Origin: Salinivirgaceae bacterium
GTDB taxonomy: Bacteria > Bacteroidota > Bacteroidia > Bacteroidales > SZUA-534
Assembly: GCA_024405635.1 (NCBI GenBank)
Contig: JAKSOL010000003.1
Coordinates: forward strand, 124,046 to 188,045
Reading direction: 5' to 3'
DNA: 64,000 nt
Positions 1,532-53,308 of this stretch are shown one piece after another (positions within the stretch are counted from its first letter, which is position 1; each line of letters opens with the position of its first letter). Position numbers and translations under genes: made by a program. The notes beneath the pieces are model-generated. The model was not told the DNA's origin, did not search any database, and saw only the letters and a list, made by a program, of their open reading frames with translations.

Positions 1532-4500
1532 TTAAATCCAACGAAGCAATGGAAGGTCTTGACGATGAGGCAATTCTGGATGTTTTGCAAACACGCGAAT
1601 ACCGTAATCGTACGAACCTGGTAGGTCAAGTTGGAAATCAATTGCAAAGAATGCCATTGAATTTACCGATTTAGAAAGTGTTAATTCACGGCAACCAATG
1701 AATTTATTTCCATCAGGTTGAACAAGAACCAATTCAACGCCTATGTCGTTAATATTTAGGTCTTTAATGTCAAGGGCTACTTCGCCGTGGTAGTTTTGAC
1801 CAGTTCTAAAATCGCTATTCAATGTGTTAGGGAAGTCAACTGATACAATTTCAATTTTGTCCCAATTCTCCATAAGTTTTGCTTTCCAACTAGTAAGTTC
1901 ACGAGCCAATTGATAGTTGTTATCAATGATTTTTTTGCTGCGAACGTATTGCTTGCTATAGTATTGAGCAATGTAGTCGTCAAGCATACGTTTTGTTGTA
2001 AAGTTAGGAGCGATGCTTGCAATTGAACGTTTGATGTATTGTACCCATTCTGTTGGAACACCATCTTCGCCACGTTGGTAGAACAATGGGATGATTTCGT
2101 TCTCAAGAATACTGTAAATAGTGGCAGCATCAAGTTCGTCTTGGAATTGAGTGTCTTGGTATGTTTGTTTTTCAGTTAAAGCCCAACCAGCTTTTTCTTT
2201 GTAACCTTCGCACCACCAACCGTCAAGCACACTAAAGTTTAGTACACCATTCATTTCGGCTTTTTGACCACTTGTACCACTGGCCTCAAGTGGGCGAGTT
2301 GGGTTGTTCAACCATACGTCAACACCGCGAACCAAACGTTTTGCTAGGTCAATATCGTAGTTCTCAAGGAACAATATTTTGCCAATGAATTCAGGACGAC
2401 GCGAAATCTCAATAATGTTTTTGATAAGGTCTTGACCTGGTTTGTCGTGTGGGTGAGCTTTACCAGCAAACAAGAATTGAACTGGACGCTCTGGGTTGTT
2501 TACGATTTTAGCCAAACGGTCAATATCGCTGAACAACAAGTGTGCACGTTTGTATGTAGCAAAACGGCGAGCAAAACCAATTGTCAAGGTGTTCTCGTTA
2601 ATTGAGTTAAGAGTCTTAACGATGTATTTTGGGCTCTCGTGACGACGAATGAAACTATCCTCGTAACGTGATTTTACGTAATCGATAAGTTTTTTGCGGA
2701 GTTTGTTTCTCAAATCCCAAATAACGTTGTCTTTTACTTTGAATATTTTCTCCCAATAGTCTGTGTTTGATTGGTCTTGCATCCAACCTTCGCCAAATTC
2801 TTGCTCATACAAACGACGCCATTCGTTTGCTGTCCATGTTGGCATGTGAACACCATTGGTAACGTAGTTGATGTATAGTTCTTCTGTAAAGAAGCCTTTC
2901 CACATATATTTAAACATCTCCTTTGTTACTTCACCATGCAAGCGGCTTACACCGTTCATTTCTTGCGAAGTTTTTGTTGCCAAAACGCTCATTGAGAATT
3001 TGTCGGTTTGGCTTCCTTCGTGTTCGCGACCTAGGTTTAAGAATACCTCCCAATCAACTTTCAAGCGCTCTGGAATTGGGCGCAAGTAAGTTCTAATCAT
3101 TTGTTGGTCAAAGGCATCGTGGCCAGCGGCAACAGGTGTGTGTGTGGTAAACAATGATGATGAGCGAACTACTTCAAGAGCCTCGCCAAATGTCAAGTTC
3201 TCGTGTTGAACAAGGTCGCACAAGCGTTCAACGTTGATAAGAGCTGCGTGGCCCTCATTGCAGTGATATACGTTAGGTTTGATGCCTAATGCTTTTAATA
3301 CTCGAATACCACCCAAGCCAAGGAACATTTCTTGTTTCAATCGGTTTTCCCAGTCACCACCATAAAGTTGGTGTGTAATGGTACGATCCTCTGGTGAGTT
3401 TTCAGGGCATTCTGTATCAAGCAAATACAATGGAACGCGACCTACTTGAACTATCCAAACTTTAGCCATTACCATACGACCTGGCAGGTTCAATGTAATC
3501 ATCAAATGGTGATTGAACTCGTCAAGAACTGGTTTGATTGGAAGGCTATCAAGGTTTTGTGGAATCAAACTAGCTTGTTGCTCGCCTGATACTGTTAATT
3601 CTTGTGTAAAGTATCCGTATTTGTATAGGAAACCAATTGCAACCATGGGCATGTTAGAGTCGCTGGCTTCTTTCAAGTAGTCACCTGCCAAAATACCCAA
3701 ACCGCCCGAGAATATTTTAAGGTTGTCAGTCAAACCATACTCCATGCTGAAATAGCCAACTAGTGGCATATCGGTACGTGGAGCAACGCTCATGTATTTT
3801 GAAAAGTCGTTGTAAACTTTTTCATATTGTGCAAGGAAAACAGGGTCTTTGCTTAATTCGTTCAAACGAGCTGTTGAAACTCGTTTAAGTAAGGTGATTG
3901 GGTTCTTTTCGCTCTTTTTCCAAAGTTCTGGATCAATGTATTTAAACATATCTAGAGCTTCGTAGCTCCAACACCACCATAGGTTGTTTGAAATTTCTTC
4001 AAGATTTTCCAATTTGCTTGGTAAGTCTGAATGGATAACCATTCTTTTCCAAACAGGTTCATTACTTGTCTGTCTATTCTCCATAATATAATTTGTGATA
4101 ATCTGTGTGTCGTTAACTTTTTTTCTTGTTGAAATGCTCAAGGCTTTTTCGTACACCTCAATGTAGTATGGGAATAAGTTCTCCCAACTTATTTCTAGCG
4201 ATTGTTTACGAGCTGCTTCGCCAATTTCTTTACGTTTTTGTACTGGCATGCGGTAAACGTTTTCAATTACATCTACCAAATCGTTTACAACATCCCAATA
4301 TCCGTCTTCGTTGCGATTGATAACAGCAATACCGTCTTCAATGCCATCGGTACGTTTTTGCATCCATTGTCCAAAACCAGCCAAGTTGTCGGTAACTGTT
4401 GGAACTCCAACTGCAATACTCTCAAGTGGAGTATAGCCCCAAGGTTCGTAATATGATGGGAATGCAGTTAAATCAAATCCGCTTAGCAATTCGTAGTACG

Positions 4501-5737
4501 ACATGTTGAAAATGCCATCGTTTCCTTTTAGGTAAACAGGAACCGATACAATATTAATGTCGCTACCATCGTTGTTTAGCAACTGTAATTGGTTGCATTT
4601 ATCAAGGATAGGGTCGTATGCGTTACGGTCAAGTTCGTGAGTTAAAATACGATCGCTAATAGGTTTCATTCCTCCGTTTAGCGCGGTAATCAATTCTTGT
4701 CGAGGTCCGTAATTGTTGTTTGGTACAAGAATAAAACCAACAATCTTGTGGTCGTGTTTGGTTTGACGCAGTTTACCTAGAGCATCAATAAATACATCAA
4801 TTCCCTTGTTTTTGAATTCGTAGCGACCAGAAATAGCTACAAATAAAGTATCGTCGTCGTATTGGTTGCCAGTTAGTGCAGATGCAACTTTGGCTAATAG
4901 TTGACGTGCTTTTTTAGGGGTGTCTTTTGCAATTTTTGGCAAGTGCTCAAGTGAAAAACCATTTGGGGTAATTACATCTGGAGCATTGTTCAAAATAACC
5001 GAACATTCGGTTGCTGTAACTTTACTCACTGTTGTGTATGCCGATGCATATTTTGCCGACATTTTTTCAAGCGAGTGCTTTGCCATCACATTCAAGTCGC
5101 GAGCTTTGGTGTCGGGGTCAAAAGTGCCAAGGCTTTTATACAATGGAAGTCCGTTGCCTGCTATTGAGCGACCAAGAACGGTTGCGTGTGTTGTAAATAC
5201 TGTGCCAATTTGTGGACAATTTTGTTCAAGGTAAAGAACGCCTGCTCCTGTTTGCCATTCGTGGAATTGGGCAATAACTGGAGTGCCTTTAAGAACGTAC
5301 TTCTTAAAACTTTCAATTACCATGCCCACAGCATAACCAAACAATGCCGATTCAACATAATCCCAGTCGCCGGTAATAGAATCGAGTTTATATGTTTCCC
5401 ACCATTTAGCAAAGATTTTATCTTTTTGTGGAATTAAAACTGTATAGTCAACCAAGAATGCTGTTGGCTTGTGTGCAACGTTCCATTTGCCAATTCTAAC
5501 TCTAATACCTTCTGCTGCAATTGCTTCTCGCCATTCAGAATATAGAGTTTTATCCTCGGTGAACTCCATGTTTTGTGTGTCGCGAATAAAATCAGGACCA
5601 ACAAATATTACGTTGTCACCATATTTGGCATGTTGGTATGGCATTTTTGATGTAATAACAGTATGGATGCCTCCAACTTTGTTGCAAACTTCCCAACTTG
5701 TTTCAAAAATAAAACATGATGAGGGGGTAGTACTCAT
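1532..5737 (-). CDS. glgP: Fused GT3 glycogen synthase (N-terminal ~550 aa) and alpha-glucan phosphorylase (C-terminal ~850 aa)
   Basis: FETSWEVCNKVGGIHTV, FTTHAT, GRYEFKNKG and FPSYYEPWGYTPLE (GT3), then YFSMEYG, GGLGILAGD, NEGH, FARRFATYKR and EASGTSGQKA (PLP lysine of phosphorylase). Confidence 0.92.
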   Translation of the reverse strand: MSTTPSSCFIFETSWEVCNKVGGIHTVITSKMPYQHAKYGDNVIFVGPDFIRDTQNMEFTEDKTLYSEWREAIAAEGIRVRIGKWNVAHKPTAFLVDYTVLIPQKDKIFAKWWETYKLDSITGDWDYVESALFGYAVGMVIESFKKYVLKGTPVIAQFHEWQTGAGVLYLEQNCPQIGTVFTTHATVLGRSIAGNGLPLYKSLGTFDPDTKARDLNVMAKHSLEKMSAKYASAYTTVSKVTATECSVILNNAPDVITPNGFSLEHLPKIAKDTPKKARQLLAKVASALTGNQYDDDTLFVAISGRYEFKNKGIDVFIDALGKLRQTKHDHKIVGFILVPNNNYGPRQELITALNGGMKPISDRILTHELDRNAYDPILDKCNQLQLLNNDGSDINIVSVPVYLKGNDGIFNMSYYELLSGFDLTAFPSYYEPWGYTPLESIAVGVPTVTDNLAGFGQWMQKRTDGIEDGIAVINRNEDGYWDVVNDLVDVIENVYRMPVQKRKEIGEAARKQSLEISWENLFPYYIEVYEKALSISTRKKVNDTQIITNYIMENRQTSNEPVWKRMVIHSDLPSKLENLEEISNNLWWCWSYEALDMFKYIDPELWKKSEKNPITLLKRVSTARLNELSKDPVFLAQYEKVYNDFSKYMSVAPRTDMPLVGYFSMEYGLTDNLKIFSGGLGILAGDYLKEASDSNMPMVAIGFLYKYGYFTQELTVSGEQQASLIPQNLDSLPIKPVLDEFNHHLMITLNLPGRMVMAKVWIVQVGRVPLYLLDTECPENSPEDRTITHQLYGGDWENRLKQEMFLGLGGIRVLKALGIKPNVYHCNEGHAALINVERLCDLVQHENLTFGEALEVVRSSSLFTTHTPVAAGHDAFDQQMIRTYLRPIPERLKVDWEVFLNLGREHEGSQTDKFSMSVLATKTSQEMNGVSRLHGEVTKEMFKYMWKGFFTEELYINYVTNGVHMPTWTANEWRRLYEQEFGEGWMQDQSNTDYWEKIFKVKDNVIWDLRNKLRKKLIDYVKSRYEDSFIRRHESPKYIVKTLNSINENTLTIGFARRFATYKRAHLLFSDIDRLAKIVNNPERPVQFLFAGKAHPHDKPGQDLIKNIIEISRRPEFIGKILFLENYDIDLAKRLVRGVDVWLNNPTRPLEASGTSGQKAEMNGVLNFSVLDGWWCEGYKEKAGWALTEKQTYQDTQFQDELDAATIYSILENEIIPLFYQRGEDGVPTEWVQYIKRSIASIAPNFTTKRMLDDYIAQYYSKQYVRSKKIIDNNYQLARELTSWKAKLMENWDKIEIVSVDFPNTLNSDFRTGQNYHGEVALDIKDLNINDIGVELVLVQPDGNKFIGCRELTLSKSVNSMAFFAIDFQLDLPGSYDYGIRVFAKHPELPHRQDLPLLRWI

Positions 5738-50604: not shown

Positions 50605-50724
<120 letters not shown>

Positions 50725-50869: not shown

Positions 50870-51379
50870 ATGCACAAAAAGCTAATTTCCGCGCTCCTTC
50901 TGCTTGCAGCAAGCAGCGGAGCAATGGCCGACAATGTGCCGGGTTTGACGGTGGAGTACCTAAACTCCAACACGCCAGCCTACACCAAGGCCATAAGCAC
51001 CATTGGGCGACTCACCTTTAGTGGCGGCAATGCCACGCTTGAGTTTGCCGACAATAGCACCGCCAACCTTGGCGCACTAACCGACATAAAGCAAATACGT
51101 TTTGCTGAGGTTGACGAGAAAAACCTAACTCCCAACACACCAGTAACGCCGCCCGATGGCATTGCCGATGCACAAGTGCGAGTTAAGGTTTATCCCAATC
51201 CAACCGCCAACCGCCTAACAGTGGAAGGTATAGCCGAAGGCGAAACCGTTAGACTATTTAACGCCAACGGCCAGCAAGTGCTAAAAGCCACCGAAACCAC
51301 CATTGATATGAGCCAATTTACAGCAGGCGATTACCTATTGCAAGTAGGAGCAAACGTGGTTAAGGTTGTGAAGAAATAA
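50870..51379 (+). CDS. Small secreted protein with a T9SS type A C-terminal sorting domain
   Basis: Signal peptide; VKVYPNPT...LFNANGQ...G.YLL.V....KVVKK. Confidence 0.88.
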   Translation: MHKKLISALLLLAASSGAMADNVPGLTVEYLNSNTPAYTKAISTIGRLTFSGGNATLEFADNSTANLGALTDIKQIRFAEVDEKNLTPNTPVTPPDGIADAQVRVKVYPNPTANRLTVEGIAEGETVRLFNANGQQVLKATETTIDMSQFTAGDYLLQVGANVVKVVKK

Positions 51380-51401
51380 ATGAATAAACCACAAATTTAA
51401 T

Positions 51402-51426
51402 GTAGAGACGAGGCATGCCGCGTCTC
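51402..51426 (+). repeat. GTAG-type REP palindrome, copy 1
   Basis: GTAGAGACGAGGCATGCCGCGTCTC. Confidence 0.75.
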
Positions 51427-51465
51427 AAAAACAAAAAATTGAAACAAATAAAAAAACAATAAAAC

Positions 51466-52971
51466 ATGAAGAAACAAATACTAACCGCCGCCATAGCCAT
51501 AATGGCCATAGGCGCCACAGCTCAAGAAAAAGTGCGCGTACACAACGGCACCCAGAGCTATGTAACCGAAATAGAATACATAACCTTTGATGCCACCGAA
51601 GCTGACCAAGCCATTTCGGTTGATGAATTGCAGAAAGAAAACACTCAGCTTTCTACCGAAAAAGCAGCATTGGTAGCCGATACTGCAACTTTAAAAGCAG
51701 CCAATACAAAACTAGAATCATTTTTGAAAGAAAAATTGTTGTACGATGATTATGTTGATTATGTACCAATTTTACATGAGAGTGTTGACCTTGGTCTCTC
51801 GGTAAAATGGGCAACAATGAATGTTGGAGCCACTAAGCCCGAAGATTATGGTAATTATATTGCATGGGGCGAAACCAAAACAAAAAGTGAGTACAACTGG
51901 GATACATACATAGTAGAACAAGGATCATTTATAGGCGACAATAAAACCGTATTAGATCCAGAAGACGATGCTGCTGCTGCCAACTGGGGCGGCGATTGGG
52001 TTATGCCATCGGAAGCCGACTGGAGGGAGATCTATTATAACTGCACCTACGAGTGGACAACCCAGAATGGCGTTAACGGCTACAAGATTACGGGCACTAA
52101 CGGCAACTCCATTTTCCTTCCTGCCGCTGGTTGTCGTTACTACGGCGACCTCAGCGGCGGGGGGGCTATCGGATACTACTGGTCGTCGCTCGACGGGGGC
52201 TACTCGGGCGGCGGCCGTACCCTGTACTTCGACGGGGGATTCTTCTACCCTTGGAGCAGCAACAGCCGTTACTACGGCCAGTCGGTTCGCCCTGTGTGCC
52301 CTTCCGCAGGAAATACCAATGGTCATGTGGCCGTAGACCTTGGCTTGCCAAGCGGCAAACTGTGGGCAGATTGCAATGTAGGCGCCAGCACGCCAGAGGC
52401 TAGCGGCGACTATTTTGCATGGGGCGAAACCGAGGCTAAGGAGAATTATTGTTGGAGCACCTACAAGCACATGCCGAGTGGGAAGTCGGAGTGGTACTAT
52501 ATCAACAAGTATCAGGCAGACGACCATCAGCTTGACGGCTCATGGTACAAGGATGTGAAGTACTGCAACCAAGGCGACAAGAAGACAACGCTCGAGGTAA
52601 AGGACGACGTGGCAACACAGTCGTGGGGCTCAGAATGGCGGATGCCAACGGCTGCCGAGTGGGAAGAGCTCTACGACAACACAACCCAGACATGGACAAA
52701 CGACTATGAGGGTACAGGCGTTAAGGGCTATATCCTCACCAGCACCAAGGAAGGATATGAGGGCGCTTCTATTTTCCTTCCTGCCGCTGGTTATCGTAAC
52801 TACGGCAACCTCGACGGCGGGGGTTCTATCGGCTACTACTGGTCGTCGTCGCTCCGCGGGGACAGCTCGCACTGCGGCCGTAGCCTGTATTTCTACGAGG
52901 GCCACTTCAACCCTTGGAACTACGACATCCGTTACGTCGGCCAGTCGGTTCGCCCTGTGTGCAAACCATAG
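51466..52971 (+). CDS. Secreted DGR target-like protein with two tandem CLec-type (VDLGL..W..NVGA) domains, each ending in a variable repeat
   Basis: Signal peptide, coiled coil, two domains ending IFLPAAG...YWSS...GQSVRPVC. Confidence 0.88.
   Translation: MKKQILTAAIAIMAIGATAQEKVRVHNGTQSYVTEIEYITFDATEADQAISVDELQKENTQLSTEKAALVADTATLKAANTKLESFLKEKLLYDDYVDYVPILHESVDLGLSVKWATMNVGATKPEDYGNYIAWGETKTKSEYNWDTYIVEQGSFIGDNKTVLDPEDDAAAANWGGDWVMPSEADWREIYYNCTYEWTTQNGVNGYKITGTNGNSIFLPAAGCRYYGDLSGGGAIGYYWSSLDGGYSGGGRTLYFDGGFFYPWSSNSRYYGQSVRPVCPSAGNTNGHVAVDLGLPSGKLWADCNVGASTPEASGDYFAWGETEAKENYCWSTYKHMPSGKSEWYYINKYQADDHQLDGSWYKDVKYCNQGDKKTTLEVKDDVATQSWGSEWRMPTAAEWEELYDNTTQTWTNDYEGTGVKGYILTSTKEGYEGASIFLPAAGYRNYGNLDGGGSIGYYWSSSLRGDSSHCGRSLYFYEGHFNPWNYDIRYVGQSVRPVCKP
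52111..52299 (+). repeat. DGR-type variable repeat VR1 (internal)
   Basis: 189 nt aligning to VR2 with 31 mismatches plus one 3-nt indel, mostly at positions 1-2 of NNC codons. Confidence 0.85.
52771..52962 (+). repeat. DGR-type variable repeat VR2 (C-terminal)
   Basis: 192 nt; first 22 nt and last 25 nt identical to VR1. Confidence 0.87.
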
Positions 52972-52993: not shown

Positions 52994-53027
52994 AAAGGCA
53001 TTGTCAGCACACGGCAATGCCTTTTTT
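52994..53027 (+). terminator. Hairpin/terminator 31 nt after VR2
   Basis: AAAGGCATTGTC/GGCAATGCCTTT stem plus T run. Confidence 0.8.
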
Positions 53028-53052
53028 GTTTTCTGTAAAAACGTTGTGCAAT

Positions 53053-53077
53053 GAGACGTGGCATGCCGCGTTTCTAC
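53053..53077 (-). repeat. GTAG-type REP palindrome, copy 2 (inverted)
   Basis: Reverse complement reads GTAGAAACGCGGCATGCCACGTCTC. Confidence 0.75.
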
Positions 53078-53104
53078 GGGTTTTCGGTATGAGAAATTGA
53101 GTTT

Positions 53105-53129
53105 GTAGAGACGTCGCACGCGGCGTCTC
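53105..53129 (+). repeat. GTAG-type REP palindrome, copy 3
   Basis: GTAGAGACGTCGCACGCGGCGTCTC. Confidence 0.72.
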
Positions 53130-53308
53130 CCAATGCAAAAATGCAATGTCTCAAAACCAATGCAAAACACTCCACGTGTGTACCAAAATCGCGTTTAATA
53201 ATGCAACTGGCTTGTTATTATTTGTGAATTTCTATTTGTGTGCATGCGCTCACCAATACCGATAATTGTGTACATTAGCACCACGTTGTTATTTTTTTTT
53301 AGAGATAC

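Follow-up and report, generated by a model that had tools for sequence, protein, structure and literature searches.

A Bacteroidales gene with two DGR-type variable repeats, probably a frozen target left after loss of its template and reverse transcriptase

DGR target genes with several variable repeats (VRs), as well as leftover targets, have already been published. According to the available text of Wu et al. 2018 (PMC5758913), a CLec1 gene has three FGE domains in tandem along with three VRs, two of them internal, and 73 DGR targets are non-adjacent. Several VRs in one ORF were counted for 31 DGRs (Yan et al. 2019, PMC6642488), and PMC11661182 lists four genes with two VRs and three genes with three, as far as the accessible portions of both sources go. 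Likewise from partial texts, DUF1566 and Fib_succ_major are among the human-gut DGR targets (PMC4159848), Treponema denticola isolates without reverse transcriptase (RT) and template (TR) keep leftover targets (Nimkulrat et al. 2016, PMC4891356), and the DGR-variable pilin tips of human-gut Bacteroides have uniformly C-terminal VRs (bioRxiv 10.1101/2024.11.15.621889). The available parts of PMC8144416 (and its preprint) and of PMC8008677 add nothing on two VRs per gene. Supplementary tables aside, our literature search found no paper on the particular family of the gene described here, which most likely illustrates a known arrangement clearly, but in frozen form.

This gene lies in a 64,000-nt stretch of DNA, hereafter the window. 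Compared with the multi-VR targets in the available text of PMC5758913, PMC6642488 and PMC11661182, it has the same tandem CLec domains, each closed by a VR, and an internal VR read through in frame, but it differs in the Lcl_C/DUF1566/Fib_succ_major type of its domains and in that our searches turned up neither a cognate TR nor a cognate RT. Its domain family, its secreted or surface location and the msl and avd genes in the cassettes of its relatives recall the DGR target category 'd'/CLec2 (Legionella LdtA), from which it departs by having two domains, a leader in which no lipoprotein cysteine was seen and an upstream type IX partner. As with the leftover targets of T. denticola, adenine-pattern VRs occur in several dispersed paralogues alongside a core-cassette remnant; in that species, however, other isolates preserve the cognate TR according to the accessible part of PMC4891356, whereas here it was not found. 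Finally, it shares with the Bacteroides pilin tips, as described in the portion of 10.1101/2024.11.15.621889 available, a gut Bacteroidales origin, the CLec fold and Msl and Avd accessory genes, but it differs from them in that one of its VRs is internal and a pilin domain is lacking. Two VRs per gene were seen in 9 genes from 6 genomes, so that this layout would be used repeatedly among the surface proteins that make up this very large gut Bacteroidales family, and targets such as this one are missed by RT-centred surveys.

Coordinates below are window positions, on the + strand unless stated. The target gene (51466..52971) encodes 501 aa comprising a hydrophobic leader, a long helix at residues 52-90, known from a low-confidence model, and two CLec-fold domains; read by eye, the leader looks like a signal peptide, which would make the protein a secreted one. 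CLec domain 1 (51775..52302; Lcl_C/DUF1566/Fib_succ_major-like) is 57% identical to CLec domain 2 (52321..52968) and carries the internal repeat VR1 (52111..52299, 189 nt), which has one Ser codon fewer than the terminal repeat VR2 (52771..52962, 192 nt). Both VRs are in frame within the single 501-codon ORF. The cassette has a GC content of 51%, against 40% for the genome. Short palindromic intergenic repeats flank the target gene at 51401-51430 and 53047-53130, the first of which has 9 blastn matches in the genome.

A codon-by-codon count of the two repeats reproduced the mismatch, codon-position, NNC and adenine figures of the original prediction, and the identical outer ends that it quoted were confirmed. 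VR1 and VR2 differ by 31 aligned mismatches and one TCG codon indel; the mismatches are distributed 14/13/4 over codon positions 1/2/3. Positions 1-2 are altered in 20 codons, 17 of which have C as third base in both VRs. Neither copy is the template, as had been proposed: of the mismatches, 8 have A in VR1, 12 have it in VR2 and 11 in neither, so that each VR carries non-A changes of its own.

The attribution of both repeats to a DGR, made in the original prediction from this pattern, is borne out by a relative. Genome G033 contains two intact chromosomal DGRs (L085 1-4100 and L086 100-3000) whose targets belong to the same family as the window gene, with the gene orders msl-avd-small gene-target-TR-RT (contig C10) and target-msl-TR-RT (C27). 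Mismatches between each TR and its adjacent VR fall on template adenines in 24/24 and 24/25 cases. For three VRs located on other contigs of G033 the proportions are 31/31, 28/31 and 26/30, and since these off-contig VRs track the adenines of the TR, remote DGR targets exist in this group. Both G033 TRs are homologous to VR1 and VR2 and align with them codon for codon, but they are non-cognate, with 38-46 non-A mismatches. Adenines occupy 54 of 183 columns of the C10 TR, and 25 of the 31 VR1/VR2 mismatches coincide with them (hypergeometric p=9e-11); for the C27 TR the figure is 24 of 31 (p=5e-10). The expectation that variation among homologues would concentrate at template adenines was likewise confirmed: we compared 20 clade VRs (6 genomes; 9 genes with two domains and 2 paralogues with one), and of their 48 hypervariable columns 39 have an adenine in the C10 TR. 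With four columns added from the clade's own variation, we defined 52 adenine-type columns, of which 32 are non-A in VR1 and 27 in VR2. These non-A states (G36/T19/C4) resemble those of five real TR-VR pairs (G69/T46/C14; p=0.53). The TRs that stand beside DGR RTs of relatives were considered as cognate templates and rejected, all ten family-related TRs aligned differing from VR1 and VR2 at no fewer than 38 non-A positions. A DGR in another genome, G056 (L107, about 3863-4046), has a VR bearing a 1-nt frameshift relative to its TR.

The location of the VRs is also that of DGR targets, since in the predicted structure they would sit at the ends of CLec folds. The Pfam match of the whole protein is faint (Lcl_C, E=0.14); among 78 aligned homologues of domain 2, 65 match Lcl_C, the former DUF1566, and 11 match Fib_succ_major. 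The AlphaFold2 model of domain 2 (pLDDT 95.1) was matched in a structure search to Bd2740 (Z 7.3), the C-terminal domain of Legionella Lcl (Z 6.9, rmsd 3.1, 105 aligned), TvpA (Z 6.9, rmsd 3.2, 130 aligned), Mtd (Z 6.2, rmsd 3.0, 122 aligned), TaqVP (Z 5.9, rmsd 3.2, 137 aligned) and 4EPS (Z 5.7, rmsd 5.1, 139 aligned). Nearly all of the best 50 structural matches are CLec/FGE folds, at middling Z values. A Foldseek search with the same model gave no match at E<=0.001, and a PDB sequence search gave none. A full-length AlphaFold2 model built from 16 sequences was discarded (pLDDT 51.6), its fold search being meaningless. All 8000 of the 8000 scored candidates matched the family, and the homologues with names are from Bacteroidales. 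The scaffold of domain 1 is nearest to the paralogue on contig C16 and next to the first domains of relatives. Most likely the protein is adhesin-like, exported and ligand-binding, with two fixed and differing putative pockets.

Outside the repeats the two domains are far more diverged, as had been noted originally. Among codons for the same residue, silent differences amount to 21/46 in the scaffolds and 4/41 in the VRs (Fisher p=3e-4), which argues that both VRs were overwritten long after the domain duplication. Codon bias alone is no explanation for this silent likeness, because the VR of the C16 paralogue differs silently from VR2 at 10 of 32 codons (p=0.03). The duplication itself is old on the evidence of sequence relationships: outside genome G025, 15 of 16 scaffolds are nearest to the same-position domain of another gene. 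In their frames VR1 and VR2 are mutually nearest (6 of 137 frame columns differ), yet at 25 of the 52 adenine-type columns they differ about as much as cross-genome pairs do (55 +/- 6%, 80 pairs). Both also carry their own non-A states, and the claim that diversification reached the internal VR as well, to all appearance separately from VR2, is supported. The comparison shows two VRs of the same template type in one ORF, each diversified, their independence being supported statistically. The first two-domain gene of G033 and that of G047 display the same pattern, with silent VR differences of 1/46 and 1/35. Weighing against rewriting of both VRs, the same-gene partner has the nearest VR frame for only 9 of the 18 VRs in two-domain genes, and several relatives' VRs look decayed.

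The two repeats have a common 25-nt GC-rich end and then part ways. VR1 is followed by a conserved 3' tail (52300..52309), a putative IMH end common to most clade VRs and here translated on into domain 2. After VR2 this tail gives way to an end resembling the one in the C16 paralogue, and a terminator-like hairpin follows (52994..53024). The conserved tail is 10 nt long, and behind the terminal VRs of several relatives stands a hairpin whose GGA loop is of a kind described for DGR targets in the available text of PMC4372165 and PMC3240598. No GGA- or GNRA-loop hairpin was found after VR1 or VR2, the only structure being the terminator-like stem after VR2. A hairpin within the coding sequence after VR1 was considered and rejected, as there is no stem of at least 6 bp and folding is no better than that of shuffles (z -0.09); a 7-bp stem follows 3 of 9 internal VRs of relatives. 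If the cognate template were found, the gene would provide a test of in-frame IMH recognition without an obvious hairpin.

A different outcome awaited the proposal that a living remote template diversifies both domains, with a non-coding, A-bearing copy expected near an RT and avd gene. In the assembly (2.66 Mb, 36 contigs, 99.78% complete), neither the RVT_1 profile nor tblastn with the RTs of relatives matched a DGR RT. Template searches by blastn (word size 7) and nhmmer --max, in an assembly that may be incomplete, found only VR-bearing paralogues, namely targets on C16, C36 and C1 and a deleted remnant on C12. An avd query gave one weak match (E=0.008), and msl is present only as an 81-codon stub on C36. 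Nor was a cognate template or RT found in the five other genomes with such genes, and no cognate template turned up in 33 genomes of the family or in 36 and 133 genomes around G033. A GTDB-wide pattern scan returned 4 loci, all of them VRs: three are in horse-faeces Bacteroidales assemblies, and the fourth repeats the G025 locus and was counted once. Template pattern scans of JGI metagenomes (0 and 0) and three of IMG/VR (0) gave nothing, a further IMG/VR scan gave 2 loci of a distant phage homologue with no template seen, and BLASTN of phage and plasmid records gave no match; the exact-pattern scans miss templates one base off, and records very near the genome itself may be left out. In a gut phage (L029/L030, 5986-6645 and 9695-10279), two genes of the domain family lie near a tape-measure gene, with no RT or template in 11-12 kb.

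The assembly does contain the remains of a DGR. On the - strand of contig C36 (L002, 7760-10120), a truncated cassette consists of a CA tract of 27-28 units, a type IX partner, a single-domain paralogous target with the same leader as the window protein and an msl gene cut after 81 codons, which is 75% identical to the msl of the G033 C27 DGR. The cassette has neither TR nor RT; 180 nt past the msl stub, and 2.7 kb from the contig end, an unrelated gene starts. As a remnant of another TR type, this cassette shows the loss of a DGR, not of the window gene's own DGR.

Taken with VR2 lacking its 3' tail and hairpin, the missing TR and RT and the C36 cassette cut before them speak against a living remote template and fit instead the fallback of the original prediction, a frozen, orphaned target. 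We consider it fairly probable that the gene is a frozen two-VR DGR target left after loss of TR and RT. This reading starts from the adenine-specific pattern, the homogenised VR frames, the CLec fold, the absence of TR and RT from the assembly and the truncation on C36. An old duplication would have produced a secreted Bacteroidales protein with two CLec domains, which presumably bound ligands. The RNA of one template, presumably common to both VRs, would have been reverse-transcribed with errors at adenines, and the cDNA would have replaced the terminal ~190 nt of the two domains on separate occasions, so that silent sites in both VRs took on the template state and each VR received a different predicted binding surface. 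In the presumed order of events, the lineage would then have lost TR and RT, the 3' targeting end of VR2 would have been replaced, probably via recombination with a paralogue, and the present allele pair would have become fixed. Such a history would mean that one DGR can rewrite the internal and the terminal VR of a single chromosomal gene. Against it stands the fact that the cognate template has never been seen. The 6 frame differences and one indel cannot date the inactivation, because 0-3 non-A changes per remote target also occur in a genome whose DGR is intact.

It is possible, although unlikely, that the system is still or intermittently active, with TR and RT on an unassembled contig or an unbinned mobile element that rewrites both VRs in trans. 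Assembled bins frequently lack repeats and mobile elements, and a systematically unbinned element would explain why the cognate TR was seen in none of the six genomes with this VR type. VR1 retains the clade 3' tail, and across genomes of two families the VR frames remain within 7-11 of about 140 columns, next to scaffolds that differ at 20-46% of silent sites. Opposed to continued activity are the GTDB, JGI metagenome and IMG/VR scans and the phage and plasmid BLASTN, none of which yielded a template, and the accessible text of PMC5758913, in which distant targets occur almost only in DGRs without phage association. In the best-holding sequencing run (X1, probably the source), each VR is moreover found in one exact contig, at depths of 22 and 17.4 versus 17.8 for the flank, and the longest pieces listed include nothing full-length that resembles a template. 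The single-contig result is weak evidence because contigs drop rare variants. Differences seen in runs X2-X4 were not used, as their contigs may be paralogues or other species.

We regard as improbable the alternative that only one VR was a true homing target and that the other arose by gene conversion or module duplication of a diversified copy, with later rewriting of one copy. Copying does occur in this family: the orthologous cassette of G025 (L031, 8998-10842) contains a recent 720-nt whole-module duplication with 89% identity and differences concentrated in the VR, and paralogues within the genome studied here have exchanged ends. VR1 and VR2 also share G at two columns where most relatives carry A, and VR1 is not followed by a clear DGR-type hairpin. 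The split of retained adenines (8, 12 and 11 mismatches) leaves each VR with non-A changes of its own, however, and where both VRs are non-A they agree at 13 of 21 columns, like other distinct VR pairs. The recurrence of the pattern in G033 and G047, with old scaffold duplicates and nearly no silent VR differences, points away from copying as well. Even if copying took place, the internal VR is DGR-written or copied from a DGR-written one.

The surroundings of the gene lead to a broader scenario. Directly upstream lies a partner gene (50870..51379), whose 169-aa product has an N-terminal leader and carries a sorting domain for type IX secretion (PF18962, E=6.9e-10), and a (CA)22 tract (50670..50713) stands about 157 nt upstream of this two-gene cassette. 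In C36, G025 and G034, and twice in G033, a homologue of the partner directly precedes the target; a more distant homologue, with 23% identity, lies within the intact C10 DGR of G033. The target may be displayed on the surface together with the type IX partner; a complex prediction for the partner and the target N-terminal segment scored 0.01 and counts neither way. Only two CA/TG tracts of at least 8 units exist in the genome, the other preceding the C36 cassette by about 160 nt, and a tetranucleotide tract lies upstream of the intact G033 C10 cassette, at the contig start. No simple-repeat tract was found within 330 nt upstream of the G025, G033 C46 and G034 cassettes. By its position, the (CA)n tract could possibly act as a slipped-strand phase switch or phase-variable promoter. 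In a scenario that we hold to be distinctly improbable, two-VR surface proteins of herbivore-gut Bacteroidales from two bacterial families would be rewritten in trans by a passing, unbinned mobile TR/RT, while the hosts would retain the targets alone and turn them on and off through simple repeats upstream; if true, three layers of variation would be combined, namely a phase switch, two independently randomised sites and module exchange among paralogues.

That no DGR was ever involved, the repeats having been shaped by normal duplication and gene conversion together with selection for diversity in binding loops, is very improbable and already largely refuted: binding loops often evolve fast and the genome itself lacks RT and TR, but selection predicts neither the coincidence of 25 of 31 mismatches with template adenines nor the spared third base in 17 of 20 NNC codons, the base spectrum G>T>C is that of real DGR pairs, and in G033 members of the family are demonstrably targeted by DGRs.

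Further members of the family were observed besides the window gene. On C12 of the same genome (L004, about 4900-5200), an internally deleted paralogue has its domain start fused to a VR end and shares the 3' terminator region of VR2 and the C16 paralogue. Two large secreted proteins encoded on C1 (L003, 6666-10466 and 12675-15188) have near-identical N-terminal halves and one or three CLec domains of the same family, with ends that look decayed or never targeted. A related protein, P0036, combines the leader and helix of the window protein with a single domain and the usual clade tail, which suggests that the number of domains at the target locus may vary among close strains.
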